A stretch of DNA of 64,000 nt, taken from positions 21,763 through 85,762 of the forward strand of contig CAWISY010000142.1 in assembly GCA_963838455.1 (NCBI GenBank). Direction: 5' to 3'. This stretch comes from Bryobacterales bacterium (lineage in GTDB: Bacteria; Acidobacteriota; Terriglobia; Bryobacterales; Bryobacteraceae). The position numbers and the translations under genes are program-made. Under the pieces are notes generated by a model. It was not told the DNA's origin, ran no database searches, and saw nothing but the letters and a program-made list of their open reading frames with translations. Each line of letters opens with the position of its first letter. Within the stretch, counting starts at the first letter, position 1. Positions 23,785-37,749 of this stretch are shown one piece after another.

Positions 23785-25725
23785 ATGCACGCTTTCTTCA
23801 ACACCTCACCGGCCGTCTCCGCCCTCCTCACCCAAAACCTGCTCACGTGGTCCGAGCAGGCGTTTCTCCTGGCCGCCGCCGCGGCGCTCGTCTCTTTCGC
23901 CATGGCCCATCCCAAAGGCCGCCTGACGATGTGGCAAACCGTGCTGCTGATCCTTCTGCTGCTCCCTTTGATCGAGCCTTGGCGCACTCCTCCCTTGCAG
24001 CTCCTGGCGCCCGCGGCAACAGCGGACGCCTCCATCGAACCCGTGGCGGCAAGCACCCAGGCAATCGCCCCGCACTGGCGCACCGAATATTGGCTCTATC
24101 TCATCGCCGCGGGCGCGGCCTTGCGGCTGATCTGGGCCGCCGCCGGACTGCTCCGTCTCCGCGGCTATCGCTTGCAGGCCGTCGCGCTGGCGGAGCCACC
24201 TCTACGATTCGCCTCGGGCGCGGCCGTCTGGTGTGTGAGCGACTCCATCCCCGGCCCCGTCACTTACGGCTGGCGCCGCCCCGTCATTCTTCTTCCCTCA
24301 CGAATCCTGAACCTGCCCGTCGAGCTCTGTGAGGCGATCCAGTGCCACGAGCTCATCCATGTCCGCCGCCGCGACTGGCTGTTCGTGCTTGGGGAGATGC
24401 TGATTCGCGCGGTCCTCTGGTTCCACCCGGCAGTCTGGTTCGTGCTGAATCGCATTCAGCTCGCCCGCGAGCAGGTGGTCGACAGCGAAGCCATCGCCCT
24501 GCTCCAGAATCGCGACCGTTATCTCGACGCCCTGGTCGCCGTCGCCCATTATCAACTGCGGCCGGATCTCGCTCCCGCGCCATCATTTTTGCGCAAGCCC
24601 CAATTAGTCGCCCGAGTCCGGGCAGTCATCGAGGAGGTTCCCATGTCCCGTTCCAGAATCGCAATCGCAACCGCCGCCGCGTGCTCTATTTTGCCGATGG
24701 CCGCCGGCGCAGCCGTGTGGCTGTTCCCCTTCGTAGCCCAGGCCCAGACGGTTATTGACGGCCCCGGCGTCACGGTCAACCCCGGCGCCGTCCTGCTGCA
24801 CCGCGCTCCCGTGCGCATCCCCAACGGCCCGGCCGTCTCCGGAACGGTGATCCTCGAAGCCACCCTGGCCTCCAATGGCGAGGTTAGCGACGCGCGCGTC
24901 ATCAGTGGTCCGGCAGAGTTGCGCAAAGATGCTCTTTCTAGCGTGCTGGAGTGGCACTATCAGCCCGGCCCGTCATTTGCGCAAATCTCCATCCAGTTCG
25001 CCGCGCCCGCCACTTCCACCGCCACCGCGCTGCTCGCGCAACCCTCACCATCTGCTTTCGTCCCCGTGCCTCGACTGGGTGCCCCTGGAGGGCGGGGGCC
25101 AGCGGCGCCGGCTTCAGCAGTGCCAGCGACCTTCCCGGCGACCGTCAAATCGATCAATGTCGTGGGCCTGACTCCCGAAGGCGAGCAGCAACTCCGCGCC
25201 CAGCTTCCCCTCCACGTAGGCGACACCGTCACCCAATCCGACGTGGATAACTTGAGGAGCACCCTCCAGGCCTTCGACACCCATCTCAGCCGAACCTACC
25301 TCCTGAGCGCCGCGCCCGGAGGCGGCAGCGAAGTCACGCTGAATATCCGCACTTTGGCTCAGCCGCAAGCAGCCTTCGCTCCGCCGCCACCACCCCCGCC
25401 GCCGACGGCCGAGCTTCAGAACGTCCCCCCGGGCGTACAACGCATTTCGTCCGCAGTTCAAGCTGCGAAATTAATCCAAGGCCCCAAGCCGGCATACCCG
25501 CCCATCGCAAAGCAGGCGCGCATCCAAGGCTCCGTCACGCTGCAGGCTCTGATTGCGAAGGACGGAACGGTCCAGAGTCTGCAAGTGCTCTCGAGCCAGA
25601 ATCCGCTGTTGACCCCTGCCGCCATAGACGCCGTCAAGAATTGGGTCTATCAGCCCACCCTCCTCAACGACGAGCCGGTCGCAGTAGCCACAACCGTCAC
25701 CGTTAACTTCAGCCTGCAAGACTAG
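23785..25725 (+). CDS. BlaR1-like M56 peptidase fused to TonB C-terminal domains (paralog 1)
   Basis: QCHELIHVRRRDW (HExxH) in a polytopic N-terminus, a POTRA-like segment, a Pro-rich stretch (PPPPPPPP) and a TonB_C end (GSVTLQALIAKDGTVQSLQVL...). Confidence 0.85.
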   Translation: MHAFFNTSPAVSALLTQNLLTWSEQAFLLAAAAALVSFAMAHPKGRLTMWQTVLLILLLLPLIEPWRTPPLQLLAPAATADASIEPVAASTQAIAPHWRTEYWLYLIAAGAALRLIWAAAGLLRLRGYRLQAVALAEPPLRFASGAAVWCVSDSIPGPVTYGWRRPVILLPSRILNLPVELCEAIQCHELIHVRRRDWLFVLGEMLIRAVLWFHPAVWFVLNRIQLAREQVVDSEAIALLQNRDRYLDALVAVAHYQLRPDLAPAPSFLRKPQLVARVRAVIEEVPMSRSRIAIATAAACSILPMAAGAAVWLFPFVAQAQTVIDGPGVTVNPGAVLLHRAPVRIPNGPAVSGTVILEATLASNGEVSDARVISGPAELRKDALSSVLEWHYQPGPSFAQISIQFAAPATSTATALLAQPSPSAFVPVPRLGAPGGRGPAAPASAVPATFPATVKSINVVGLTPEGEQQLRAQLPLHVGDTVTQSDVDNLRSTLQAFDTHLSRTYLLSAAPGGGSEVTLNIRTLAQPQAAFAPPPPPPPPTAELQNVPPGVQRISSAVQAAKLIQGPKPAYPPIAKQARIQGSVTLQALIAKDGTVQSLQVLSSQNPLLTPAAIDAVKNWVYQPTLLNDEPVAVATTVTVNFSLQD

Positions 25726-25737
25726 AGGACATTCGCC

Positions 25738-27558
25738 GTGAACATCCAGACCATCCCTCTGACCCTGCTGATGTGGAGCGCGCAGGTTGCGGTCTTGACT
25801 GCCGCCGCGGCGCTGGCGGCGATGGCGATTGCGCATCCCAAGGGCCGCCTGGCGCTGTGGCAGGGATTGCTCGCGGTGTTGCTGCTGCTGCCCGCCATCG
25901 AGCCGTGGAAAGCCGCGCCGCTGCCCATGATCGCGCCAGTGCCGCAGGCAACGTTCGAGATCGCCTACAATCCAGCGGCTTCGCAGCCGGCCAGCCTGCA
26001 CTGGCGCCCCGAATACTGGCTGTGGCTAATCGCAGCCGGCGCGGCACTGCGCCTTTTGTGGATGGCCGCCGGATTCCTGCGGCTGCAGCGCTACCGCCGG
26101 TACGCCCACCCGATTGCCGAGCCGCTGCCTTCGTCGGCGGGCTCGGTCGCCTGGTACGCCAGCGACGCGGTTCCCGGTCCGGTGACCTACGGCTGGCGCA
26201 GGCCAGTGATTTTGCTTCCGTCCAAGACGCTGGACCTGCCCGCCGATCTCCGCGAGGCCATCCAGTGTCACGAACTGATCCACGTCCACCGCGGCGATTG
26301 GCTCTGGGTGGTGGGCGAGACCGTGGTGCGCAGCCTGCTCTGGTTTCACCCCGCCATCTGGTTCGTGATGAATCGGATTCAACTGGCGCGAGAACAGGTT
26401 GTCGACCAGCAAGCCGTCGGGTTGCTCCACAATCGCGACTCCTATCTGGACGCGCTGGTGGCCGTCGCGGCGTATCAGCTCCGGCCGGATCTTACCCCCG
26501 CGCCTTTGTTCTTGAGAAAGCGCCATCTGCTGGCGCGAGTCGAAGCAGTTGTGAAGGAGGTTCCTATGTCCCGTCCCAGAATGTTTGCCGGAATCACGGC
26601 CGTTTGCTCGCTATTGCCCGTAGCGGCCTTTGCCGCCGCGTGGATGTTCCCCTTTGTTACTCCGACCCAGGTTCGAGCCCAAATGATCAAGGGTAAAATG
26701 GTCACCGCCGCCGTGGCGGACAGCCCCGGCGTTACCGTCGAGCCCGGCGGCGTCCTGCTCCATCGCGCGGCCGTCCTGGCCCCAGCGGGCACCACCGCCA
26801 CCGGGAAAGTGCTGCTGGAGGCAACGCTCAACGCCCAGGGTGAAGTCACCGACGCGCGCGTGATCAGTGGTCCGCAGGAGCTGCGCAACGCCGCGCTCTC
26901 CAGCGTCCTGCAGTGGCACTATCAGCCCGGCCCCACCGTGGCTGAGATCGGAATTCAGTTCAGCGCCGCCACCAACGCCGCTTCTCCGTCACCGGCTCCT
27001 CCTCCGGTTCCGCAGCCTTTGACGACGCTCAACGGCATCGAATTCCGCGGCCTCAGCGCCGAAGCCGAGCAGGAGTTGCGGCAGCGCCTGCCCCTGCATG
27101 CGGGAGACGCAATCACGCCGCAGCTTATGGCCGACAGCTTCGCCGTACTGCATTCCTATGACAGGCACCTCGGTATGAGAGCGGTCAACCGAGTCCCGGG
27201 CGGCTATTCTTTGGTGATCGGGCCGCAGAGCGTGCCGGCGACGGCTGCCACGGCTGCTGCGCCTGCCACGGTCTACCGTCCCGGCGGCGACATCTCCAAT
27301 CCTGTCCCCATCAGCCGCCCGCAGCCTGAATACTCCGAAGAAGCCAAAACAGCCAAGTGGGGTGGAACGGTGCTGCTGTCCGTGGTGGTGGATGAAACCG
27401 GACACACTCGCGACATTCGTGTGCTGAAGCCTCTAGGCTTCGGCCTGGATGAGAAAGCCATCGAAGCCGTCTCCAAGTGGACCTTCCGCCCCGGGATGAA
27501 GAGCGGAGTGGCTGTCCCGGTCACCGCGCAGATCGAGGTGAGCTTCCGGCCGCTCTAG
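25738..27558 (+). CDS. BlaR1-like M56 peptidase fused to TonB C-terminal domains (paralog 2)
   Basis: GTG start. QCHELIHVHRGDW. High identity to paralog 1 across the M56 domain and the first periplasmic domain. TonB_C end (GTVLLSVVVDETGHTRDIRVLK). Confidence 0.85.
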   Translation: MNIQTIPLTLLMWSAQVAVLTAAAALAAMAIAHPKGRLALWQGLLAVLLLLPAIEPWKAAPLPMIAPVPQATFEIAYNPAASQPASLHWRPEYWLWLIAAGAALRLLWMAAGFLRLQRYRRYAHPIAEPLPSSAGSVAWYASDAVPGPVTYGWRRPVILLPSKTLDLPADLREAIQCHELIHVHRGDWLWVVGETVVRSLLWFHPAIWFVMNRIQLAREQVVDQQAVGLLHNRDSYLDALVAVAAYQLRPDLTPAPLFLRKRHLLARVEAVVKEVPMSRPRMFAGITAVCSLLPVAAFAAAWMFPFVTPTQVRAQMIKGKMVTAAVADSPGVTVEPGGVLLHRAAVLAPAGTTATGKVLLEATLNAQGEVTDARVISGPQELRNAALSSVLQWHYQPGPTVAEIGIQFSAATNAASPSPAPPPVPQPLTTLNGIEFRGLSAEAEQELRQRLPLHAGDAITPQLMADSFAVLHSYDRHLGMRAVNRVPGGYSLVIGPQSVPATAATAAAPATVYRPGGDISNPVPISRPQPEYSEEAKTAKWGGTVLLSVVVDETGHTRDIRVLKPLGFGLDEKAIEAVSKWTFRPGMKSGVAVPVTAQIEVSFRPL

Positions 27559-27602
27559 CTGGAGCATGCTATAGTGCTAAATTGCCCGCCTTGGCGCGGA
27601 CC

Positions 27603-28325
27603 ATGCAGCACGAGGCCTCTACTACAGACCAATACACCCTTCTGGATCAGCAGCTTATGAGCCGGGCCACGCGCTATTTCGCGTGGCAAGCCTCGACCGC
27701 CCAAGCGCATCTGGGCCGGCGAGTCATCGAAACCGGCTGCGGCATCGGCAACTTCACCCGCTACTTGACCGGTTGCGAACTGGTGGTCAGCATCGATGTG
27801 GTGGAGGAGTGCGTGGAGCGCAACCGCGCCCATTTCGCCTCCCATCCCAACATGCAGTTCCGCTGGCTGGATGTCCAGAACCCGGCCTTCCTCGACTTGA
27901 AATCGCTGCGCCCGGACACCGTCGTGTGTCTCAATGTGCTGGAGCATGTGCGTGACGATCGCCTGGCCCTCAAGCACATGCATCACGTGCTGGTCCCGGG
28001 CGGGCGCGCCATCTTCTTACTGCCGGCCTTCGAAGCGCTGTACGGACCCATCGACAGCAACCTGGGCCACTTCCGCCGCTACTCCAAAGCCGGGTGGCGC
28101 AAAATGGCGGAGGAAACCGGCTTCCGCGTCACGGAATCGCGCTACTCCAATCCAATCGGCTTCGTGGGATGGTGGATTGGCGCCCGAATCCTGCACCGCC
28201 AAACACATTCCGCCGCGATGATCAAAATCTTCGACCGCTTCGCCGTTCCTCTCCAATCGCAAATCGAGCGATGGATTGAGCCGCCCTTCGGACAATCCAT
28301 CTTTACCGTTCTTGAGAAGGTATAA
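27603..28325 (+). CDS. class I SAM-dependent methyltransferase
   Basis: VIETGCGIGNF (motif I), VVCLNVLEHV, GGRAIFLLP. Confidence 0.8.
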   Translation: MQHEASTTDQYTLLDQQLMSRATRYFAWQASTAQAHLGRRVIETGCGIGNFTRYLTGCELVVSIDVVEECVERNRAHFASHPNMQFRWLDVQNPAFLDLKSLRPDTVVCLNVLEHVRDDRLALKHMHHVLVPGGRAIFLLPAFEALYGPIDSNLGHFRRYSKAGWRKMAEETGFRVTESRYSNPIGFVGWWIGARILHRQTHSAAMIKIFDRFAVPLQSQIERWIEPPFGQSIFTVLEKV

Positions 28326-28336
28326 TCTCACCGGAG

Positions 28337-29260
28337 GTGAGCATGAACAAATCCGCCCTCGCGTGCGCGCTGGCAGGCATTGGGTCCTTTGCCCTTGTCG
28401 CGGTGACCGTGCACGGCCAGGCCCAAACGGACTACAGCAAGGTGCAGATCAAGACCACGAAGTTGACTGCCGACTTCTATACGCTGGAGGGCTCCGGCGG
28501 AACCATCGGCGTGCTGGCAGGCCCCGACGGAATCTTCATGGTCGACGGAGAGTTCGCCCCGCTCACCGATAAAATCATGGCTGCTATCCGCAAAATTTCT
28601 ACCGCGCCGGTGCGTTTCATGATCAACACCCACGTCCATCCCGATCACACCGGAGGCAACGAAAACTTCGCCAAGCTGGGCGTGACCATCTTCGCGCGGC
28701 CCGAGCTGCGCGATCGCCTGGCGCATCCCAATCCCGGAGCCAATGGCGCTCCCGGAACGCCCGCTCCCGCCGCGGCGCTCCCGGTGGTCACCTATGACGC
28801 GCCCATCGCCTTCCACATGGACGGCGAAGAAATCGACGCGATTCCCGTCCCGCGAGCCCACACCGACGGCGACACCATGGTGCATTTCGTCAACGCCGAC
28901 GTGATCATGACGGGCGATTTCTACCGCTCCATCCAATACCCGAACATCGACCGCGCCAACGGCGGCTCGCTCAAGGGCATGCTCGCCGGGTTGAGTGAAG
29001 TGGTCGCGCTGGCGGGGCCGAAGACCAAGATTGTGCCCGGTCATGGGGCGGTGGTCGATCGCAATGCCGTGGCTGCCCACCGCGACATGATTCTGGTTTT
29101 GCGCGATCGCGTGGCGGAGCAGATCAAGCAGGGCAAGACCCAGGAGCAGGTGGTCGCCGCCAAGCTCACCTCCGACTACGACTCCAAGGTTCCCGAAGTC
29201 GGCACCACCGCGGATCGCTTTATCGGCCAGCTTTACGCGGATTTGAAGGCCGCGCAGTAA
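28337..29260 (+). CDS. MBL-fold metallo-hydrolase, secreted
   Basis: Signal peptide. NTHVHPDHTGGN (HxHxDH), later RAHTDGD and PGHG. Confidence 0.85.
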   Translation: MSMNKSALACALAGIGSFALVAVTVHGQAQTDYSKVQIKTTKLTADFYTLEGSGGTIGVLAGPDGIFMVDGEFAPLTDKIMAAIRKISTAPVRFMINTHVHPDHTGGNENFAKLGVTIFARPELRDRLAHPNPGANGAPGTPAPAAALPVVTYDAPIAFHMDGEEIDAIPVPRAHTDGDTMVHFVNADVIMTGDFYRSIQYPNIDRANGGSLKGMLAGLSEVVALAGPKTKIVPGHGAVVDRNAVAAHRDMILVLRDRVAEQIKQGKTQEQVVAAKLTSDYDSKVPEVGTTADRFIGQLYADLKAAQ

Positions 29261-29305: not shown

Positions 29306-30556
29306 CTAACGTGGGTCCGTAATCCGGCCGGCCAGCGCCGACGCCGCCACCGTATCGGCCGAACCCAGATAGACTCGCGCCTTCGGATGCCCGTTGCGGC
29401 CCGGAAAGTTGCGAGCCTGATTCGAGATCATGGCTTCCGATTCACTCATCGCACCCATGTTCACGGCTTGATTCGATCCCGCGCTGGGCGGGAACAAAAT
29501 CGCTCCGGCCTCGAGCAGCGTTTCGATCAAGCCTTCCCGCAACGCGGCGAGCAGAATCCCGCGCGTGGCCGGGACAATCTGCATCCGCACGTTGGGATGG
29601 ACCTTCTTGCCGCGCAGCCGGGCCGCCGCCGCGCGAATGTCGCACAACCGGCCTCCGGTGCTGCCGCCGATCTCGGCCAATTGAATTTCGATACCGGCAA
29701 CCTCGTCAATGGGCCTCACATTGCCCACTGTCGGTGGACACGCGACCTGCGGCTCGAGTTTGCTGACGTCGATATCCACGACTTTCGTATATTTGCCGCC
29801 GGGGTCGTTCAAGAACATCTCGAAGCGGCCCGCCGCATGCCTTTTGGCAAACTCCAGGGTGCGCTCATCAGGATTGATGAACCCGGCCTTGGCTCCCAGG
29901 TCGATCGCCATCAGCGGAAACAACAGCCGGTCTTCGATCGAGAGCTGCTCAATGAACGGTCCCGCATACTCGACCGTCTGATACACCGCGCCGTCCTCGC
30001 CCAGAAAACCTTCCAGGTACTGCGCAACATCGCGAGGCGTCACGCCGTGTTGAAGCTCCCCATGGAGAAACACCTGGAAGGTGTCCGGCACCTTGAACCA
30101 GCATTTGCCGTGCGCGTACCCAAGCGCAGCCATCGAATTGTTCCCGACCCCGGTGGAAAAAACCCCCAGCGCGCCGTAAATCGTGGTGTGCGAATCGCAG
30201 CCGATCACAATCTGCCCCGGCGCCCACAAAGCGTTCTCGATGATCACGTGATGGATGCTGCCCCAGCCCGAATCGAAGACGTTCGTGATCCCGTATTTTG
30301 CGGCGAATTTGCGGGCCTCCGTGAGCACCTCGGCATCGCGCTGCGACGGCGGCGAGAAGGTGTGATCGAAGACGAACGCGATCCGAGAAGGATCGAAGAT
30401 GCTGCCTCCGCCCATCTCCTGCTCGAAGACTTTCGAGACCAGGTTCGAGCTCAGATCGTGCAGGACCATCCGGTCTACGTTGGCTACGACGATCTCGCCC
30501 GGCTCGACCTGCTTTTTCCCGCTCGCCCGAGCGAGAATTTTCTCGATCATGTTCAT
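29306..30556 (-). CDS. aconitase-family large subunit (LeuC/HacA-like) lacking the three Fe-S cysteine ligands
   Basis: MNMIEKILA..., FVFDH, GCDSHT and ARNFPGRNG are retained. It has EIGGSTGGR where the neighbouring paralog has LGSCANAK, and PPSAGSNQA where that paralog has NPGCGACAG. Confidence 0.8.
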   Translation of the reverse strand: MNMIEKILARASGKKQVEPGEIVVANVDRMVLHDLSSNLVSKVFEQEMGGGSIFDPSRIAFVFDHTFSPPSQRDAEVLTEARKFAAKYGITNVFDSGWGSIHHVIIENALWAPGQIVIGCDSHTTIYGALGVFSTGVGNNSMAALGYAHGKCWFKVPDTFQVFLHGELQHGVTPRDVAQYLEGFLGEDGAVYQTVEYAGPFIEQLSIEDRLLFPLMAIDLGAKAGFINPDERTLEFAKRHAAGRFEMFLNDPGGKYTKVVDIDVSKLEPQVACPPTVGNVRPIDEVAGIEIQLAEIGGSTGGRLCDIRAAAARLRGKKVHPNVRMQIVPATRGILLAALREGLIETLLEAGAILFPPSAGSNQAVNMGAMSESEAMISNQARNFPGRNGHPKARVYLGSADTVAASALAGRITDPR

Positions 30557-30566
30557 AGGGGCACCT

Positions 30567-31424
30567 TCATAAAAGACCCGTCCCCGAACATGTATCGCCG
30601 TAGTACAAGCCATCGTGTTCGACGCGCAACGCATAGATTGAGCCTGTTCCTGTTTCATACGGCTGCGGCCCCGCGAGATTCTCGCGGTATCCGCCGCCGT
30701 CGGCCAGCGCGGCATCAAAGCGCCGTTCCAGTCTCACGAATTCGTCTGCCGGCCCATACGGTCGCGTCACCTTCACCCAATGCCCACAGCGCTCCATCGC
30801 AACTTCGACCGAGTAAGCGTCCCCGCCGCGCGGCTTCACCCGAATCACGAGATCTTCAGCGCCATAGTGGCGGAGGAGACGCTCAAGCCTTCCAACCTCA
30901 AAAACGCGCCCCTCAAGACCGTCCAGCGCCTTTCGGGCAAGCACAACGGCCGCTCGCCGCATCGAATGTTCAGCGTTGTCGGTATCCGTAATTCCCTTGG
31001 ATGGCACGTCGACAATCTTCCCGCGCAGCCCGTCGCGAATCTCCACCGGCAGATGCGGCAAATCCAGCACCCCAAGCTTCGACCATCCCCGCTCCGCGCA
31101 CAACTGCTCCAGCGTCGTCATCAACTTCGACGCAGGACGAATGTCTTCGAAGATGGTCACTGACTTGATCCATGGATAGACTCGCGGCGAAAGCGCGCAC
31201 AGCAGCACCGGAGGACCTTCGCGCGGAATCACGATCAGCGACCGGTTCCAGTACGGCATGAAATTGGTCAAGAACCGGCCTTGGTTGGAGCGCCACACGT
31301 CGGTGTAAACCAGCAGCGCAGGGAGATCCCGCTCGGTTAGCGCGGTGCGCACGCGTGCGAGCCGCTCTTCGAAGACCTCGGGAGGAAGCATTGCTTTATC
31401 CCACGCAATTAGACCGCGCTTCAT
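30567..31424 (-). CDS. creatinase/prolidase N-terminal-like protein (M24-related, no catalytic motifs seen)
   Basis: 285 aa. FEERLARVRTALTERDLPALLVY resembles the Creatinase_N domain. The start overlaps the upstream stop (ATGA). Confidence 0.55.
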   Translation of the reverse strand: MKRGLIAWDKAMLPPEVFEERLARVRTALTERDLPALLVYTDVWRSNQGRFLTNFMPYWNRSLIVIPREGPPVLLCALSPRVYPWIKSVTIFEDIRPASKLMTTLEQLCAERGWSKLGVLDLPHLPVEIRDGLRGKIVDVPSKGITDTDNAEHSMRRAAVVLARKALDGLEGRVFEVGRLERLLRHYGAEDLVIRVKPRGGDAYSVEVAMERCGHWVKVTRPYGPADEFVRLERRFDAALADGGGYRENLAGPQPYETGTGSIYALRVEHDGLYYGDTCSGTGLL

Positions 31425-32464
31425 CCGGCTTCCTTCACAAAGAGCTTACGCTCGGTTTGATTCAACCGCTCATTGCCTGAGGCCGTAATTAGCGTCGTAT
31501 CCCCGAACACCATGTACCCGGCCAGCGGCAGATACGTGTTCGGATGCGCGATCACCACCATATTTTCTTTAAACACATAATCGACGTCTTCCAAAATGTG
31601 CGGCGTCTCGTCTGGATAGAGCCCCAGGCAGTGGCCTCGTACACGCGTATATTTCGCGCCGGTGTAATCGCCGTAGCCGTATTTGCGAAACACATCGTTC
31701 TGCGCCTTCGCCGCATCCGACGCCTTCACTCCCGGCCGGATCAAGTCCTGCGCGGCCTGCTGCGCTTCGTAAAAAATGGCGAAGGATTCGATCTGATCCT
31801 TCGACGGCTCGCCCAGCACTACGGTCCTGCAGATCTGCGCGTAGTAGCCGTTTACGCACGGCGTCAGCTCCGTAATGACGGAGTCGCCCTTTTGCAGCTT
31901 GCGCTCGGTCGGCGGTTTCATGCCGACCACCTCGGTCCCGCCGGAAGCGATCAGCATGAAGTTGTCTTCGGCGCCCTGCGACTTCAAGAACCCTTCCACT
32001 TCCGCAACCAATTCGTACTCCCGCATTCCCACAGCGGCCGTTTCCGCGAAGAACTGATAGCCGCGATCCGCCAGCTCGGCGGCCTGGCGTAGCCACTCGA
32101 TCTCCTCTGGCGTCTTGACGCGCCGCAGTTCCTCCACGTCCGCCGTCGCTGACACTGGCGACCCGTTGACGAATTGGCTCTCCATCCATTCAAGACCCGC
32201 GATGGCCGAGGCTTTGGGTAAATCGCCCGTGAACTCCCGCGCACTCGGAACCAGGTCCCGATCCCAGGGATCCGCCAGCATCACGGTCAATTCCCCGGAA
32301 CGGGTCAGATGCGCGGCCCCGAAAGGGCCACAATAGTTGACATTCACCAAGCCACGGAAGTGGTCTTTGCGCCAGCCGTTGCCGTACAGCAGAATCGAGT
32401 CCCACCCTCGCTCCACCATCAGATCCATCAACTGGCGTCTCCGGCGCTCATTCACAGGACTCAC
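31421..32464 (-). CDS. M24-fold (creatinase / Xaa-Pro peptidase family) protein lacking canonical metal ligands
   Basis: Pita-bread fold signature GDSVITELTPCVNGYYAQICRT...GHCLGL...VVIAHPNTY. GTG 32464 overlaps the upstream TGA (GTGA). Confidence 0.7.
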   Translation of the reverse strand: MSPVNERRRRQLMDLMVERGWDSILLYGNGWRKDHFRGLVNVNYCGPFGAAHLTRSGELTVMLADPWDRDLVPSAREFTGDLPKASAIAGLEWMESQFVNGSPVSATADVEELRRVKTPEEIEWLRQAAELADRGYQFFAETAAVGMREYELVAEVEGFLKSQGAEDNFMLIASGGTEVVGMKPPTERKLQKGDSVITELTPCVNGYYAQICRTVVLGEPSKDQIESFAIFYEAQQAAQDLIRPGVKASDAAKAQNDVFRKYGYGDYTGAKYTRVRGHCLGLYPDETPHILEDVDYVFKENMVVIAHPNTYLPLAGYMVFGDTTLITASGNERLNQTERKLFVKEAG

Positions 32465-33537
32465 GGTGAGACACTCTCCAGGAACCATTCGGTCGGCAAT
32501 TCGCGGCCCAAGCCTAATGCCCGAGCCCGCTTCACCACCGCCGCGCCCACCGCCGCGAATTGCGTGCCCGCGCCGGTGTTGTTGTTGAAGCAAGTGATCT
32601 GCTCAGGGCTGGTGCGCCCCTGAGCTTTACCCGCCACAAGATCTTGCAATTCGCCAATATCCTCCCAACGAACGATCCCCTTCTGCGCGACCTCCCACAC
32701 ATCCGGCGACTGATCGTTCTTCGCGACCTCCTTGGAATGCACGAAATAAACGTCGGCGCGGCGGATGCATTCGTCGTCGATCTCGCGGCGCTTGTTGCTC
32801 GCATCGGAGCCGCCGATGGAGGCGACATACATGCCGCGTTCGACCCAATGGCCGTCGAAGACCGGGTCCCACGCAGCGGTCGCCGCCTGGATGAAATCGC
32901 TGCCCGTGACGGCTTCCTTGGGAGTCGCCACACAGCGCACCTCACGGCCCAGCTTTTTCGTCATCCCCTCACAGAAGTGGCGGCAATGTTCCTGATTCGG
33001 GCTGTGAACTTTGATTTCGTCGAAGGAATACTGCGCAGCCAGGAATTCGAGATGCGCGCTGGCCTGCCACCCGCTGCCGAATAACCCCAGCGTGTGCGGC
33101 TTCTCCGGAGCGAGATAACGAGCCCCGACGGCGCTCATCGCGGCGACCCGCACTTTTTGAATCACTCCATCGGGCATGATCGCCACCGGCTCGATCTTTG
33201 CCACGTCGAACAAAATCACGAGGCCGCAATATTTGTTCCCGGTCGCAACCGGCAAGATTCGCCGTCGCTTCACGCCCGCCGTATAAGAAAATCCCGCCAT
33301 GTCGGACGTCAGTCGCAGAGCCCATACGCCGCAATCGAGGCTTCCGCCTTCCTGCGTCTTCATCCGGTAGTGAAACCCGGGATGCTCCTTCGATTCCGCC
33401 GGCAAGTATACCTGCGACCTCGGCCGATTGAGCGCCTTACCCTCGGCCAATTCGCGATAGATGCTCTCGGTGGCCGCGATCGCTTCCTGCGGCAGCAGCG
33501 CCTGCTCGACCTCTTCGTTATTCAGTAGCAGGGTCAT
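32461..33537 (-). CDS. ornithine cyclodeaminase / mu-crystallin family protein
   Basis: MTLLLNNEEVEQALLPQEAIAATESIY..., LGLFGSGWQASAHLEFL Rossmann motif. Start overlaps the upstream stop (ATGA). Confidence 0.85.
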   Translation of the reverse strand: MTLLLNNEEVEQALLPQEAIAATESIYRELAEGKALNRPRSQVYLPAESKEHPGFHYRMKTQEGGSLDCGVWALRLTSDMAGFSYTAGVKRRRILPVATGNKYCGLVILFDVAKIEPVAIMPDGVIQKVRVAAMSAVGARYLAPEKPHTLGLFGSGWQASAHLEFLAAQYSFDEIKVHSPNQEHCRHFCEGMTKKLGREVRCVATPKEAVTGSDFIQAATAAWDPVFDGHWVERGMYVASIGGSDASNKRREIDDECIRRADVYFVHSKEVAKNDQSPDVWEVAQKGIVRWEDIGELQDLVAGKAQGRTSPEQITCFNNNTGAGTQFAAVGAAVVKRARALGLGRELPTEWFLESVSP

Positions 33538-34073
33538 GATCGAAGCAAAGCTTGGCCAGCATCGGACTTAAGCAGCGGAATCAGCCCTCCGGCGCGCAGC
33601 ATGTCGAGCAGGATGCCGCTGGGAGGTGTGCCCTGAATCGTCGCGCCCGTGGTCAGATTCTCCACCACTCCACGTTCGATATCGACGCGCAGGCGATGCC
33701 CGGTCTCGACCATCTCATGTATCCCGCGCACTTCCAGAATCGGCAGCCCGATCTCCGGCCCGTTGCGATAAAACGTGCGCGAGAAAAATTCGGCCAGCAC
33801 CGCGCCCACTCCCGTCGCCTTAATCGCCTTGGGCGCGATGGCTCGTCCGGAGGAGCATCCGAAATTCCGGCCGGCGACGATAATATCGCCCTCCTTCACG
33901 TTCTTGGGGAAATCCGGATTGGCGTTTTCGAGAACGTGCTTCACCATCTCCTGCATACCGCGCATCACCAGATGCGTGGGAGTGATCATGTCCGTGGGAA
34001 TGTTATGGCCGAACTTCCAGCAGTTGCCTTCCAGTATCAGATTCACGTGATTTCCAACCCGTCTTGCGTCCAA
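33534..34073 (-). CDS. aconitase-family small subunit (LeuD-like swivel domain)
   Basis: WKFGHNIPTDMITP, GRNFGCSSGRAIAP, FSRTFYRNGPEIGLPILE. Start uncertain (ATG 34073 or GTG 34046); it overlaps the end of the MFS gene. Confidence 0.8.
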   Translation of the reverse strand: MDARRVGNHVNLILEGNCWKFGHNIPTDMITPTHLVMRGMQEMVKHVLENANPDFPKNVKEGDIIVAGRNFGCSSGRAIAPKAIKATGVGAVLAEFFSRTFYRNGPEIGLPILEVRGIHEMVETGHRLRVDIERGVVENLTTGATIQGTPPSGILLDMLRAGGLIPLLKSDAGQALLRS

Positions 34074-35232
34074 GCGCCGCGAGCAACACGAACGCCAGCA
34101 CGCAGGATAACAGGTCCACGGTGAACGCGGTCGAGTAGTGATGCGTCTGGTCGTAAATCCTCCCCGCCACCACTCCGCCGGAACTGGTCCCCAGCCCGAA
34201 GAACATCATCAGCAGGCCCAGGATGGTGCCCACGCGCTCCGTTCCGAAATATTCAAAGGCGATCAGCGACGGAGCGTTGAAGATTCCGCCGTAGCCTAAC
34301 CCGAACACCGCCGCGGCCAAATAGATTTCATTGGCTCTCGGATCGGCCGCCAACAAAATCCCGATCCCGGCCATCAGGCACACGGCCGCCAGCATCATGG
34401 ACACGCGCGAAGAAAACCGGTCCGCCGCGGACCCTCCCAGCAGCTTCCCCACCGCGCTCGCACCCAGCAGCGTGCTCAAAGCCTGCGCCGAGTTGGCCGG
34501 GTTCACCCCCTGCCCGCGCAGATACAGCACCAGGTTCTCCTGCACTCCCATCAGCGTGTGCGCCGCAAAAAAGGACGCGATACCGAAAATCCAAAACACC
34601 GGATTCGAGAGTACCCCGCCCGCTCCGGCAAGCGTGTGCCTGTTTCTGGAAGGGCCGCCTTCGGCGGCTCCGCGCCCGGGAGCAAGCACCAGCGTCATCA
34701 CCAAGGGAATCGCCAGCGCCGTGCTGAGCAGCAGAAACGCCTGCGAGTAACCATCCTTCGCGATCAGCTTGGTGGCGAGCTTGGGAAAAACATATCCTCC
34801 CAGCCCGACTCCCGCATTGATCACGCCCACGGCGAGCCCGCGCTGCTTCGAAAACCAAGGAGCGATCAGCATCGACGCCGGCACCAGCGATGCTCCCGCC
34901 GTGCCGATGCCGAGGAGCGTGCAGAATGCGTACCACTGGCCGACCGTTTGCGTGGTCGAAAGCAGGCACATCGCCGCGGCGACCGTTACGCATCCGCCCA
35001 GAATCACCAGCTTCGGGGAAAATCGATCCGCGAGCCAGCCAATCAGCGGCCCTAGAATCCCGATCAGCAGCAGGGCAATCGACCCGCCGCCCGCCGCTTG
35101 CGCATGCGACCACCCGAACTTTTTTGGGTCCGCGAATACGGGGTAGAACACGGGTAGCGAGAATCGCCCCGCGCAAAACCCCACCGCGAGCGCGGTAAAC
35201 GCGACCACCAACCCTCGGACCCGGCTGTTCAC
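34003..35232 (-). CDS. MFS transporter
   Basis: 409 aa, 12 hydrophobic helices. First gene of the minus-strand operon. Confidence 0.85.
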   Translation of the reverse strand: MNSRVRGLVVAFTALAVGFCAGRFSLPVFYPVFADPKKFGWSHAQAAGGGSIALLLIGILGPLIGWLADRFSPKLVILGGCVTVAAAMCLLSTTQTVGQWYAFCTLLGIGTAGASLVPASMLIAPWFSKQRGLAVGVINAGVGLGGYVFPKLATKLIAKDGYSQAFLLLSTALAIPLVMTLVLAPGRGAAEGGPSRNRHTLAGAGGVLSNPVFWIFGIASFFAAHTLMGVQENLVLYLRGQGVNPANSAQALSTLLGASAVGKLLGGSAADRFSSRVSMMLAAVCLMAGIGILLAADPRANEIYLAAAVFGLGYGGIFNAPSLIAFEYFGTERVGTILGLLMMFFGLGTSSGGVVAGRIYDQTHHYSTAFTVDLLSCVLAFVLLAALGRKTGWKSRESDTGRQLLEVRP

Positions 35233-35242
35233 TGCGGAGATT

Positions 35243-35908
35243 CTATCGCACGCCGGAGCTTGCCTGCTTAACCCGCGCGAGCCGGGCGAGGATCTCCTGC
35301 TTCTCCGCCGCGAGAATGTCGTCTGTGTCCAGGTCGTACTTGGCCACGGTCATATATCTGTCCCAGAGGTAGTAGAGAGCCCCTACGGGCGAGTACGCCG
35401 GGACAGCCAAGTACGATGAAATAACGTAACGGTGTGGACCGTAATGCGCCTCCTCCGGGCCCCAGACAACTTCAGCCGTAACGAACATCTTCGCGTCCGA
35501 CATCCCAGACTCCGTCCAGAACGCGTGCTGATTTTGGTTCGAAGTCGATGCGTCGAAAACAAACAGATCCTCCAGGCCCCTCGCCGCGCCCGGCCGGAGC
35601 AACGCAAAATGGACCAACCAGCCGCTCGCCCCGTAACTTTCCGCCGAGAATAAAAGTGCAGGGGAGCCTGGCTCGATGTCGACCACTTCTACGCGCGGAT
35701 TTCTTACAAACTCTGCCGGCATCGTGTAACACTGCCGCGGAGCACCTTCCAGACACACTGATGCGGGGCCCTTGAAGGTAAACCCGTCCTTTTCGCTGCC
35801 CTGATCCACCACCGTCACATCGCGGCCCATAAACTTCAAGTGCTCCTGCGCGCCGGCCGCAAAGGCCGCTAGCAGAACCACCCACGAAATTACCGCGAGC
35901 CGCGACAT
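35243..35908 (-). CDS. hypothetical secreted protein
   Basis: Signal peptide MSRLAVISWVVLLAAFAAGAQ from ATG 35908. No motif recognised. Confidence 0.55.
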   Translation of the reverse strand: MSRLAVISWVVLLAAFAAGAQEHLKFMGRDVTVVDQGSEKDGFTFKGPASVCLEGAPRQCYTMPAEFVRNPRVEVVDIEPGSPALLFSAESYGASGWLVHFALLRPGAARGLEDLFVFDASTSNQNQHAFWTESGMSDAKMFVTAEVVWGPEEAHYGPHRYVISSYLAVPAYSPVGALYYLWDRYMTVAKYDLDTDDILAAEKQEILARLARVKQASSGVR

Positions 35909-35985
35909 CACGCTTAGCGTACCAGCATCCGCGCACCTGCATGCTATACTCATGGCCGCCTGGTTCTCTCCAGGAGCCGGTCCTC

Positions 35986-37242
35986 ATGGGAAAGACCATC
36001 GCTGAAAAAATCCTCGCCGCCAAATCCGGCAAATCTGCCGTCATCCCCGGTGAAATTGTCGAAGCTTACCCCGACCTGGTGATGAGCCACACGGCCACCT
36101 GGCGGTCGGTCAGCGTGATGAATAAGGTCGGCGCAACCAAGCTGTACGATCCGGACCGGCTGGCCGTCGTGCTCGATCACATCGCGCCTGCCAAGTCCGA
36201 AAAGAACGCCGCCGATCACCAGGTCTGCCGCACCTTTGTCCGCAAATACGGCATCCAGAAGTTCTACGACGTCGACGCCGGCATCGCCCACCTGGTGCTG
36301 ATGGAAAACGGACACGTCGCGCCGGGCGACCTCATCGTCGGCACCGATTCGCACTGCACCATCTACGGCAGCCTGGGCGCGTTGGGCACTGGGATCGGCT
36401 ACACCGAAGTCACCTCGGTCTGGATTACGGGCAAATTGTGGATGAAGGTCCCGGAGAGCTTCAAAATCACGCTGAGCGGCGAGCTCCCCCCCGGCGTTTA
36501 TTCCAAAGACCTGATGCTGCACCTGATCGGCACGCTCGGCGCTGACGGCTGCAGCTACAAATCGGTCGAGTTCTACGGTACGGCGTCAAACCTCAGCATC
36601 TCCGAACGCATGACCATGACCAACCTGGCGATGGAGATGGGCGTAAAGTGCGCCTTCATTCCGCCGGATTCGAACACCGCCGGGTATCTCCGCGACCGTC
36701 TCAAGAATCCCGAGCGATACCACCCCGTCCTGGCCGATCCCGACGCCGTTTATGAGCGCGAAATCCCGGTCGACCTTTCAACTCTTGAGCCCATGGTCGC
36801 CTGCCCGCATGAGGTCCAGAACACCAAGCCCATCGGACAGGTGGAGGGCACCCGCATCGACCAGGCGTTTCTCGGCTCCTGCGCGAATGCCAAGTATGAG
36901 GATCTGGTGGTCGCCGCGCGCATCCTCAAGGGCCGCCGCATTCACCCGGGAGTCCGCTTCATCATCACGCCAGGATCGAAAGAGATCATGCTGGAAGCGG
37001 TGAAATCCGGGGTCGCCGCGACCCTTCTGGAAGCCGGTGGGCTGTTCACCAATCCCGGCTGCGGAGCCTGCGCCGGCGACGGAGGCGTCATGGCCGACGG
37101 CGAAGTATGCCTTTCCACCGCCAATCGAAATTTCCTGGGCCGTATGGGCTCGAGCAAAGCCGAGATCTATCTTTCCAGTCCCGCGACCCTGGCGGCGTCG
37201 GCCATCAAGGGCTCGATCGCCGACCCGCGGGAATTCTTCTAA
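35986..37242 (+). CDS. leuC: 3-isopropylmalate (or homoaconitate) dehydratase large subunit, canonical Fe-S type
   Basis: MGKTIAEKIL..., VLDH, GTDSHC, LGSCANAK, NPGCGACAG and NRNFLGRMG are all present. I cannot separate LeuC from HacA by eye. Confidence 0.8.
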   Translation: MGKTIAEKILAAKSGKSAVIPGEIVEAYPDLVMSHTATWRSVSVMNKVGATKLYDPDRLAVVLDHIAPAKSEKNAADHQVCRTFVRKYGIQKFYDVDAGIAHLVLMENGHVAPGDLIVGTDSHCTIYGSLGALGTGIGYTEVTSVWITGKLWMKVPESFKITLSGELPPGVYSKDLMLHLIGTLGADGCSYKSVEFYGTASNLSISERMTMTNLAMEMGVKCAFIPPDSNTAGYLRDRLKNPERYHPVLADPDAVYEREIPVDLSTLEPMVACPHEVQNTKPIGQVEGTRIDQAFLGSCANAKYEDLVVAARILKGRRIHPGVRFIITPGSKEIMLEAVKSGVAATLLEAGGLFTNPGCGACAGDGGVMADGEVCLSTANRNFLGRMGSSKAEIYLSSPATLAASAIKGSIADPREFF

Positions 37243-37257
37243 AACGTGCCATAGAAC

Positions 37258-37749
37258 ATGCAATCCCTCATTCAAGGCCGCGCTTATAAATTCGGGGATA
37301 ACATCAACTCCGACATTATCATCCCCGGCCGCTATTTGATCTACATCGAGCCGCAAAAGCTGGCCGAGCACGCGTTCGAAGTCCTGGGCCCGGAGTTCCC
37401 GGCGAAGCTGCGCAATTTCCAGATCCTGGTGGCCGGCCGTAACTTCGGCTGCGGCAGCGCGCGGGAGCAGGCCGCGACCGCCATTCAAGGGCTCGGAATC
37501 CAGGCCGTGATTGCGTGTTCCTTCGCCCGCACCTTTTATCGCAACGCGATTAACGACGGCCTGCCGATCTTTGAATGCCCCGAGATTTATCCCGCCGTCA
37601 CAGAAGGCGACGAGCTGTCGATCGACCTCGCCGCCAGCGCCATCGTCCATCAGGGAAATTCCTATGGCTTCCCGCAGTTCCCCGAATCCGTACGCAAGAT
37701 TTTGGAGTTGGGCGGGCTGGCTGCTTATTTGAAGACCCAGCTTTTATGA
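37258..37749 (+). CDS. leuD: 3-isopropylmalate (or homoaconitate) dehydratase small subunit
   Basis: AYKFGDNINSDIIIPGRYL, GRNFGCGSAREQA, FARTFYRNAINDGLPIFE. Confidence 0.8.
   Translation: MQSLIQGRAYKFGDNINSDIIIPGRYLIYIEPQKLAEHAFEVLGPEFPAKLRNFQILVAGRNFGCGSAREQAATAIQGLGIQAVIACSFARTFYRNAINDGLPIFECPEIYPAVTEGDELSIDLAASAIVHQGNSYGFPQFPESVRKILELGGLAAYLKTQLL

Follow-up and report, generated by a model that had tools for sequence, protein, structure and literature searches.

A LeuCD-type subunit pair lacking the cysteine ligands of the [4Fe-4S] cluster in a Bryobacterales genome, and its conserved gene neighbourhood

Iron-sulfur (Fe-S) clusters can work as Lewis acids instead of carrying electrons, for which the aconitase superfamily is the textbook example. 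The locus described here raises the question of what a member of this superfamily may still do once the residues holding that cluster have been replaced. The locus lies in a stretch of 64,000 nucleotides from a Bryobacterales bacterium (assembly GCA_963838455.1, contig CAWISY010000142.1, positions 21,763 to 85,762), called the window in the following, and its coordinates are used unless another locus is named. It encodes a large subunit, LeuCx, and a small subunit, LeuDx, related to the two subunits of LeuCD-type dehydratases. The original prediction, made from the sequence alone, held that the large subunit has lost all three cysteine ligands of the [4Fe-4S] cluster and keeps its acid-base and substrate motifs. 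Both observations were borne out, and LeuCx was found to belong to a widespread clade with the same replacements. The reading favoured here, which we rate as evenly poised between right and wrong, is that LeuCx and LeuDx form a heterodimeric LeuCD-type enzyme without a [4Fe-4S] cluster, which would act as a cluster-free acid-base isomerase or lyase. The features which carry the argument are the following.

29306..30556, minus strand: LeuCx, large subunit of the Cys-less LeuCD-type enzyme, 416 amino acids (PF00330, NF001614)
29648..29674, minus strand: LeuCx motif EIGGSTGGR in place of the canonical x-G-S-C-x-N-x, with Glu295, Gly298 and Gly301 clade-invariant
29453..29494, minus strand: LeuCx motif FPPSAGSNQAVNMG in place of the canonical P-G-C-G-x-C-x-G, with Asn362, Gln363, Ala364, Asn366 and Met367 clade-invariant
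33534..34046, minus strand: LeuDx, small subunit (PF00694, TIGR02087); the longest open reading frame (ORF) runs from TTG 34073, the likely start is GTG 34046
33822-33863, minus strand: LeuDx active-site loop FGCSSGRAIA, in which Ser75 corresponds to Ser642 and Arg77 to Arg644

Family residues are numbered here as in pig aconitase, the own numbering of LeuCx and LeuDx being used beside it. The register of the alignment was established by BLASTP against the neighbouring canonical copy, by phmmer against the solved LeuC, homoaconitase (HacA) and aconitase structures and by MAFFT, all of which were concordant. In aconitases the cluster is ligated by Cys358, Cys421 and Cys424, which are completely conserved outside aconitase X (AcnX) (PMC8184944). 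In LeuCx these columns are occupied by Ser299, Ala359 and Asn362, the canonical G-S-C-A-N-A standing opposite G-G-S-T-G-G and the canonical P-G-C-G-A-C-A-G opposite P-S-A-G-S-N-Q-A. All three cysteines are gone in this single register, as had been claimed; among the proposed replacements, Ala and Asn were correct, and the first is Ser instead of the Thr originally read. Three further positions have been replaced, Asn258 by Leu215, Asn446 by Ala381 and Glu262 by Asp219. The residues Asn258 and Asn446, which we take from the aconitase structures to be cluster-contacting, are Asn in the canonical partner and in 74-93 of 120 representatives. No cysteine column is conserved in either subunit across the clade, some members having 2 Cys in total, and alternative Cys ligands are thereby ruled out. 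This includes the Cys of RLCDIR, named beforehand as a possible substitute which would overturn the prediction: it occurs in 12% of the clade members only.

The acid-base residues have been kept. Asp64-His65 (Asp100-His101), His102 (His147) and Asp121-Ser122-His123 (Asp165-Ser166-His167) are clade-invariant, as are the carboxylate-binding arginines Arg382 (Arg447) and Arg387 (Arg452), in agreement with the conservation of FDH, GCDSHT and RNFPGRNG noted at the outset. The small subunit likewise retains the Ser-x-Arg that had been read as CSSGRA, and Ser75 and Arg77 of its loop are invariant in 76 LeuDx sequences. Moreover, the former cluster pocket has acquired new invariant polar residues: Asp219, Glu295, Asn362, Gln363, Asn366 and Asn388. 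The residues which are both invariant and specific to the clade comprise Glu295, Gly298, Gly301, Asn362, Gln363, Ala364, Asn366, Met367 and Asn388 in the former cluster segments and Asp219, Arg175, Asn139, Ser141 and Glu187 beyond them.

The minus-strand ORF ending at 29306 stays open as far as a TTG at 30718, and the start of LeuCx was placed at ATG 30556. This codon follows the stop of the preceding gene by 10 nt and is itself preceded, at a distance of 5 nt, by the Shine-Dalgarno sequence AAGGTG; it agrees with the N-termini of all homologues as well as with an independent gene call. By sequence and by fold, LeuCx is a member of the LeuC/HacA branch of the aconitase superfamily. It matches PF00330 with 232 bits (cut-off 28.7, E 1e-68), NF001614 with 433.7 bits (cut-off 385) and TIGR01343 with 415 bits (cut-off 385.7); it aligns over its full length with the large subunit of the Methanocaldococcus jannaschii isopropylmalate/citramalate isomerase (4KP1/4NQY, E 2e-90 in phmmer) and with the homoaconitase of the same organism (4KP2, 5e-77), and it shares 40% identity with the canonical copy at 35941-37242. 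The AlphaFold2 model, with a mean predicted local distance difference test (pLDDT) value of 94.4, shows the three-domain alpha/beta fold (domains 1-3), with Foldseek template modelling (TM) scores of 0.94 to 4KP2 and 0.92 to 4KP1. The protein falls below the LeuC equivalog cut-offs (TIGR02083, 383.6 against 610.65; TIGR00170, 149.7 against 560) and below that of the homoaconitase HacA (NF040615, 339.3 against 550). Its neighbours are an ornithine cyclodeaminase/mu-crystallin family protein (OCD), M24 proteins and an MFS transporter, with no leuA- or leuB-type genes among them. Relatives of LeuCx are currently named "3-isopropylmalate dehydratase large subunit" or "homoaconitate hydratase family protein" in the databases; such names are not justified, because LeuCx fails the defining cofactor feature and every LeuC/HacA equivalog cut-off. 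As regards other families, a Pfam-type scan gave no AcnX family match, the fold match to AcnX being distant (TM 0.58-0.61, 14-15% identity), and LeuCx has the aconitase fold instead of one like PrpF or diaminopimelate epimerase.

A clade sharing the Cys-less pattern, which the original prediction had proposed to search for, does exist. The closest database clusters of LeuCx (69-100% identity) read Ser-Ala-Asn at the ligand columns in 120 out of 120 cases. A scan of species-representative genomes returned 72 loci with relatives of LeuCx, and from these together with three metagenome loci 68 clade sequences were obtained, all 68 of which lack the three cysteines and read S/H–A/T–N. The S-A-N type is that of the Acidobacteriota, the phylum of the Bryobacteraceae, to whose metagenome-assembled genomes the window is most similar. 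The H-T/A-N type, 47-56% identical to LeuCx, is carried by many groups outside this phylum, such as Binatia, Deltaproteobacteria, Actinoplanes, Actinoallomurus, Emcibacter, Devosia, Burkholderiales, Verrucomicrobiia, Lachnospiraceae and other Bacillota, and Treponema and other spirochaetes; some members come from strict anaerobes, for example Lachnospiraceae and Treponema. The catalytic residues are unchanged over more than 8 phyla at 47% identity. In a second scan, over GTDB species, the clade signature NQA[VIY]NMGA was found in about 224 species-level loci, with Steroidobacter, Peristeroidobacter, Alicyclobacillus and Halalkalibacter among the cultured genera.

In the neighbour-joining tree all 68 Cys-less sequences fall together on a long stem, and the Cys-less proteins are thus one monophyletic clade. 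An exhaustive search showed that C-C-C is kept in 132 of the 138 full-length nearest relatives (50%-identity representatives); chance can be excluded, since most nearest relatives keep the three cysteines while every clade member lacks all of them. The ratio of nonsynonymous to synonymous substitution rates (dN/dS) against close orthologues was 0.06-0.13 for LeuCx and 0.04-0.11 for the canonical partner, values which are qualitative because dS is near saturation and which indicate equally strong purifying selection on both. Decay into a pseudogene is ruled out by this low dN/dS, by the clade-wide conservation and by the intact operon with its Shine-Dalgarno sequence. No clade member was found by tblastn in the plasmid collection, the best matches there being canonical LeuC proteins at most 40% identical, and the PDB holds no solved structure of the clade. 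The literature search gave no description of Cys-less or cluster-free LeuC/aconitase members, nor of LeuCD-like genes near an aconitate isomerase or in trans-aconitate clusters, which is not proof of absence.

Two LeuC-like proteins outside the clade, P0213 and P0266 (the latter at L114 518-1798), read C-V-E and S-S-G at the ligand columns; because these also lack ligands, the loss may have been repeated in the family. P0266 lies on a short contig, flanked by a PemK toxin gene and a GIY-YIG gene. One LeuCx protein was recovered on two assemblies (L001 4400-8000 and L002 4430-8004). The LeuDx, OCD and M24 genes upstream of it are fragmented in L001, a locus retrieved a second time as L071, and intact in L002, and these fragments are more likely assembly indel errors than real pseudogenes.

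Among characterised systems, the LeuCD/HacAB enzymes of M. jannaschii (MJ0499, MJ1003; 4KP1, 4NQY, 4KP2) are homologous to LeuCx/LeuDx over the full length, with 38-40% identity, and share with them the separate small subunit, the Asp-His, His, Asp-Ser-His and Arg...Arg residues and the Ser/Arg loop, but they bind a [4Fe-4S] cluster through three Cys where LeuCx has Ser, Ala and Asn. AcnX resembles LeuCx in being a divergent superfamily member with non-classical substrates, and in hydroxyproline clusters its product is reduced by an OCD-family reductase (PMC5144071, PMC8184944); however, AcnX has Fe-S clusters of its own ([2Fe-2S] or [3Fe-4S]/[4Fe-4S]) at another site and reaches a TM score of only about 0.6 to LeuCx. 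The iron regulatory proteins IRP1, in its apo form, and IRP2 are aconitase-family proteins which function without a cluster. They are, in contrast, single chains of about 900 residues which bind RNA and are non-enzymatic in that state, IRP1 keeping its cysteines, whereas LeuCx has strongly constrained catalytic residues and its gene lies in metabolic operons. A functional analogy is offered by class II fumarase and aspartase and by PrpF and aconitate isomerase, which carry out eliminations, additions or allylic proton shifts on unsaturated di- and tricarboxylates of the same kind by protein acid-base chemistry alone; their folds are unrelated to that of LeuCx, homology is not claimed, and an isomerase activity of LeuCx would be convergent.

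LeuCx is the last gene of a minus-strand operon with the order MFS, LeuDx, OCD, M24, a 285-aa protein and LeuCx, which faces a divergent canonical LeuCD pair:

34003..35232, minus strand: MFS transporter (Pfam-type match), first gene of the operon, its 3' end overlapping the LeuDx start
32461..33537, minus strand: OCD, ornithine cyclodeaminase/mu-crystallin family NAD(P) oxidoreductase, kept in the cluster across phyla
31421..32455, minus strand: M24 (prolidase/creatinase-fold) protein (PF00557), start at GTG 32455 or ATG 32428
30567..31424, minus strand: truncated M24 paralogue of 285 aa, with no Pfam or PDB sequence match
35986..37242 (ORF from 35941), plus strand: canonical Fe-S LeuC-type large subunit, the divergent partner, with C-C-C, Asn258, Glu262 and Asn446 kept
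37258..37749, plus strand: canonical LeuD-type small subunit, with the loop GCGSAREQA

The end of the MFS gene and the start of LeuDx share about 40-70 nt, read in different frames (34003-34073), which suggests translational coupling. The solved structures nearest to the OCD protein are delta1-pyrroline-2-carboxylate reductase (6T3E) and iminosuccinate reductase (6RQA). At the metal-ligand positions the M24 protein has E/Q/H/H/G instead of the D/D/H/E/E of Pyrococcus furiosus prolidase (1PV9), a pattern invariant in 41 orthologues, and because of it the protein is not a canonical dinuclear metallopeptidase. The 285-aa protein, present in 34 loci, is related to the M24 family (hhalign probability 99.2%, E 1e-19), its Emcibacter orthologue matches Creatinase_N, and by sequence it is probably a non-catalytic partner subunit of the M24 protein. 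In clusters of anaerobes two full-length M24 genes stand in place of this pair.

A canonical LeuC with the three Cys, both Asn and Glu262 was present within the fetched flanks of 43 of 67 Cys-less loci, the remainder being mostly short contigs. The cluster conserved across phyla comprises a canonical LeuCD, the second LeuCD, the atypical M24 pair, an oxidoreductase and a carboxylate transporter, the transporters being MFS, TctABC and TRAP systems, the last with a substrate-binding protein nearest to DctP (4OVS). In Bacillota and spirochaetes the OCD gene is replaced by one for a PreA/dihydroorotate dehydrogenase (DHODH)-like flavoprotein with a ferredoxin domain, and the clusters also hold a TRAP transporter, an IclR regulator, an AbrB-type membrane protein and two tandem LeuDx genes. 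The AbrB-type protein is a regular neighbour in the Firmicutes clusters, and in the protein P0330 an AbrB-type membrane domain (PF05145) is fused to an aconitase-family domain, which suggests a functional link, perhaps in transport. Two LeuDx genes in tandem behind one Cys-less large subunit were observed in L038 (10264-10776 and 10773-11273) and also in L044, L047, L048, L050, L055, L056 and L059, an arrangement which recalls plant isopropylmalate isomerase (IPMI), where the small subunit sets substrate specificity.

Other observations concern the surroundings of the cluster. A 236-aa ORF (35243-35953, minus strand) lies between the two divergent operons and has a signal-peptide-like N-terminus and no Pfam match; in the Gammaproteobacterial locus L003 the gap is 59 nt, with no room for a counterpart. 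In the Emcibacter metagenome-assembled genome (L049 397-5091) the cluster immediately follows genes for a LigB-type dioxygenase, Amidohydro_2, PrpF and an RraA-like aldolase, as known from the lower pathway of protocatechuate/gallate meta-cleavage, and a TonB-dependent receptor adjoins. Amidohydro_2 and RraA-like genes and an NMT1-type ABC system lie downstream of LeuCx in several Bryobacteraceae loci. In the window, two tandem paralogous Peptidase_M56 (BlaR1-like) proteins fused to a TonB C-terminal domain are encoded on the plus strand (23785-25725 and 25738-27558), followed by a methyltransferase (27477-28325) and by a secreted protein with the metallo-beta-lactamase fold (28337-29260).

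The position of LeuCx in this cluster can be compared with that of its nearest Cys-containing relatives, P0126, P0171 and P0236, which share with the Cys-less clade the loss of Asn258 and Asn446 (Asn258 being Leu in both), Gln363, an insertion at Phe67 and Arg175. A search seeded with P0126 returned about 60 proteins with four invariant Cys in the pattern C-x59-C-G-P-C-Q-M-x-C. Three of these sister LeuC-like proteins are encoded as follows:

L081, 9001-10263: P0278
L083, 9001-10257: P0313
L076, 6118-7389: P0126

The sister family keeps the three ligands together with an invariant fourth Cys, whereas LeuCx has none of them; its small subunits have, in common with those of the Cys-less clade, an SS-x-R loop without the following Glu. 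It was recovered only from strict anaerobes, namely rumen and gut Bacillota, Lachnospiraceae ZAX-1, Family XIII, Syntrophales, Thermodesulfobacteriota, Cryosericum and Dethiobacter. In these it fills the same slot, in the order LeuC1-LeuD1-LeuC2-LeuD2-M24-M24, accompanied by a transporter of the TRAP or TctABC type and by an oxidoreductase that is either PreA-like or TfrAB/fumarate-reductase-like. From this shared placement it follows that the "double-LeuCD plus M24" cluster already existed when the cysteines were lost, and that at this position of the pathway a cluster-bearing enzyme has been replaced by the Cys-less one. The fourth Cys of the sister may ligate the unique iron, which would give a fully ligated, non-catalytic cluster. 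A stepwise loss of the cofactor, from an Fe-S "second LeuCD" through a remodelled four-Cys stage to a cofactor-free isomerase or lyase carrying out the same step in hundreds of mostly aerobic species, all within one lineage, is put forward tentatively, as a scenario somewhat less probable than its negation.

Another view of the pair is given by five Alpha- and Betaproteobacterial loci, in which it is encoded without any canonical LeuCD or M24. There it adjoins a lyase like 3-carboxymuconate cycloisomerase and trans-aconitate decarboxylase (CMLE/Tad1-like; 1RE5 2e-85, Tad1 4e-76), and the operons also hold a PrpD-family protein, an enoyl-CoA hydratase, a family III CoA-transferase, TctC receptors and an FAH-family hydrolase. 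As no canonical LeuCD is present in these operons, the Cys-less pair functions on its own, and its neighbours there place it among enzymes of unsaturated tri- and dicarboxylates of the aconitate/itaconate type.

In the favoured reading, that of a cluster-free acid-base isomerase or lyase, the heterodimer would bind an unsaturated or substituted di- or tricarboxylate in the manner of LeuCD, and the chemistry would proceed without an Fe-bound hydroxyl. The alkoxide of Ser75 would take or return the carbon-bound proton, and the second proton would come from the His-Asp dyads. We propose that an enoate is isomerised, in a cis/trans or allylic sense and much as aconitate isomerase does it, or else that a beta-elimination proceeds without metal; class II fumarase and aspartase, which use serine as the base, catalyse the same elimination metal-free. 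The product would be a cis-enoate for hydration by the neighbouring Fe-S LeuCD or, in the proteobacteria, an isomer used by the adjacent CMLE/Tad1-like lyase. A candidate substrate would be a carboxylate imported by the MFS, TRAP or TTT systems, possibly bearing nitrogen, and the role is probably catabolic, in a pathway of carboxylic-acid breakdown so far uncharacterised. There are precedents for such a division of labour: in fungal lysine synthesis one isomerisation is divided between two aconitase-family enzymes (PMC3556520), and PrpF, an isomerase without a cofactor, is required by the aconitase AcnD (PMC5690661).

Several substrates suggested by the gene context were considered, namely hydroxyproline/prolidase, ectoine (EutC/EutD), orotate/dihydroorotate, dipicolinate, beta-hydroxyaspartate and trans-aconitate/itaconate, none of which was supported by an equivalog-level match; the NCBIfam matches of the OCD, M24 and PreA-like proteins were all far below cut-off. 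A prolidase role was discarded, the window M24 protein lacking the prolidase metal site, and the aconitate/itaconate theme fits the proteobacterial context only. That dihydrophloroglucinol cyclohydrolase is an M24 protein was checked and not borne out, and no sequence could be tied to a cofactor-free two-subunit maleate hydratase.

Certain points weigh against the favoured reading. The choice between isomerase and lyase was taken from gene context alone, and the former Cys421/424 loop is the sole lower-confidence stretch of the structural model (pLDDT about 75). A single metal ion could equally be bound by the three conserved His and the Asp. The sister family, which keeps its cluster ligands, indicates that the reaction of the slot can be run by a cluster-bearing protein, and this would fit an ordinary hydro-lyase step. 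Oxygen or iron sparing is a weak cause for the loss, because an Fe-S LeuCD is still needed next door; as a sole driver it is further weakened by the Cys-less members in strict anaerobes. The premise of the original prediction that aconitase-family dehydratases are defined by their Fe-S cluster also needs a qualifier, given a sister with the cluster cysteines in the same slot: because of this shared slot, the step may be the same with or without the cluster and not new chemistry.

Of the consequences first drawn from the missing cluster (other chemistry, another metal site or a role that is not enzymatic), the metal site is represented by a classical hydro-lyase in which a single divalent metal (Fe2+, Mn2+, Mg2+ or Zn2+) replaces the unique iron of the cluster as Lewis acid. 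The proposed holders are His65/His102/His123, Asp121/Asp219 and/or the new Glu295, Asn and Gln residues. Such an enzyme, which we consider unlikely, would account for the fact that none of the three His-carboxylate dyads placed around the Fe-bound hydroxyl of aconitase has been lost and for the new invariant acidic and amide side chains exactly at the former ligand sites; moreover, the sister in the same slot keeps its cluster, so a Lewis acid may help the step. Nevertheless, the first ligand column varies between Ser and His and the second between Ala and Thr among subclades, which is unusual for metal ligands, and no recognisable metal-binding motif is present. Rather more doubtful is a C-N lyase or deaminase, or an enamine/imine-forming dehydratase, acting on an amino- or imino-substituted, aspartate-type analogue of a LeuCD substrate, whose product would be reduced by the OCD-family reductase or, in anaerobes, by the PreA-like or fumarate-reductase-like flavoprotein. 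A protonated amine leaves without a Lewis acid, and the new acidic residues Asp219 and Glu295 could pair with an ammonium group. The genomic side of this proposal is that an OCD/mu-crystallin gene, with delta1-pyrroline-2-carboxylate and iminosuccinate reductases as relatives, lies between two LeuCD pairs across phyla, that the oxidoreductases found in its stead (PreA/DHODH-like, TfrA/NadB-like, F420 LLM) act on the C-alpha-N or C-alpha-C-beta bond of aspartate-like skeletons, and that M24 proteins of the creatinase/DoeA type cleave C-N bonds. The argument is, however, built on family-level analogies, and the proteobacterial context (CMLE/Tad1-like, PrpD, CoA-transferase, enoyl-CoA hydratase) includes no nitrogen-handling enzyme.

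The two remaining explanations are poorly compatible with the data. One is a non-catalytic pseudoenzyme, a relative of LeuCD which would bind ligands, regulate or serve as a scaffold, much like the cluster-free IRP proteins. Loss of the defining cofactor is typical of pseudoenzymes, and LeuCx is usually encoded beside a catalytically complete paralogue; yet none of the acid-base and carboxylate-binding residues varies over many phyla at an overall identity of 47%, the dedicated small subunit has co-evolved with its catalytic Ser and Arg unchanged, the dN/dS is as low as that of the canonical enzyme, catabolic operons of proteobacteria hold the pair with no canonical LeuCD beside it, and no RNA- or DNA-binding additions are present. 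Such a role is judged improbable, and the invariant catalytic residues, a dN/dS of about 0.1 and the stand-alone operons argue against the non-enzymatic option of the original prediction. That an Fe-S cluster is still bound, through non-cysteine or non-homologous ligands, seems extremely improbable. His, Ser and Asp/Glu occasionally ligate Fe-S clusters, and the HTN-type members have His at the first column, but iron cannot be ligated by the Ala/Thr of the second column or by the Asn of the third, neither subunit has a conserved Cys, and the two cluster-contacting Asn have become Leu and Ala.

If the reading of LeuCx/LeuDx as a cluster-free isomerase or lyase is true, the classical aconitase/IPMI family would have its first cluster-independent enzyme, and the aconitase fold could catalyse without its cluster. 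The Cys-less clade and its four-Cys sister constitute a natural series for the study of cofactor loss in an Fe-S enzyme. The annotation as 3-isopropylmalate dehydratase or homoaconitase and as Fe-S protein would then have to be corrected in hundreds of genomes. Furthermore, the pair would, on the same condition, mark a widespread, uncharacterised "double-LeuCD plus M24" catabolic pathway, and it points to a carboxylate catabolism spread among soil Acidobacteriota, Steroidobacteraceae and actinomycetes as well as gut and rumen Firmicutes and spirochaetes.

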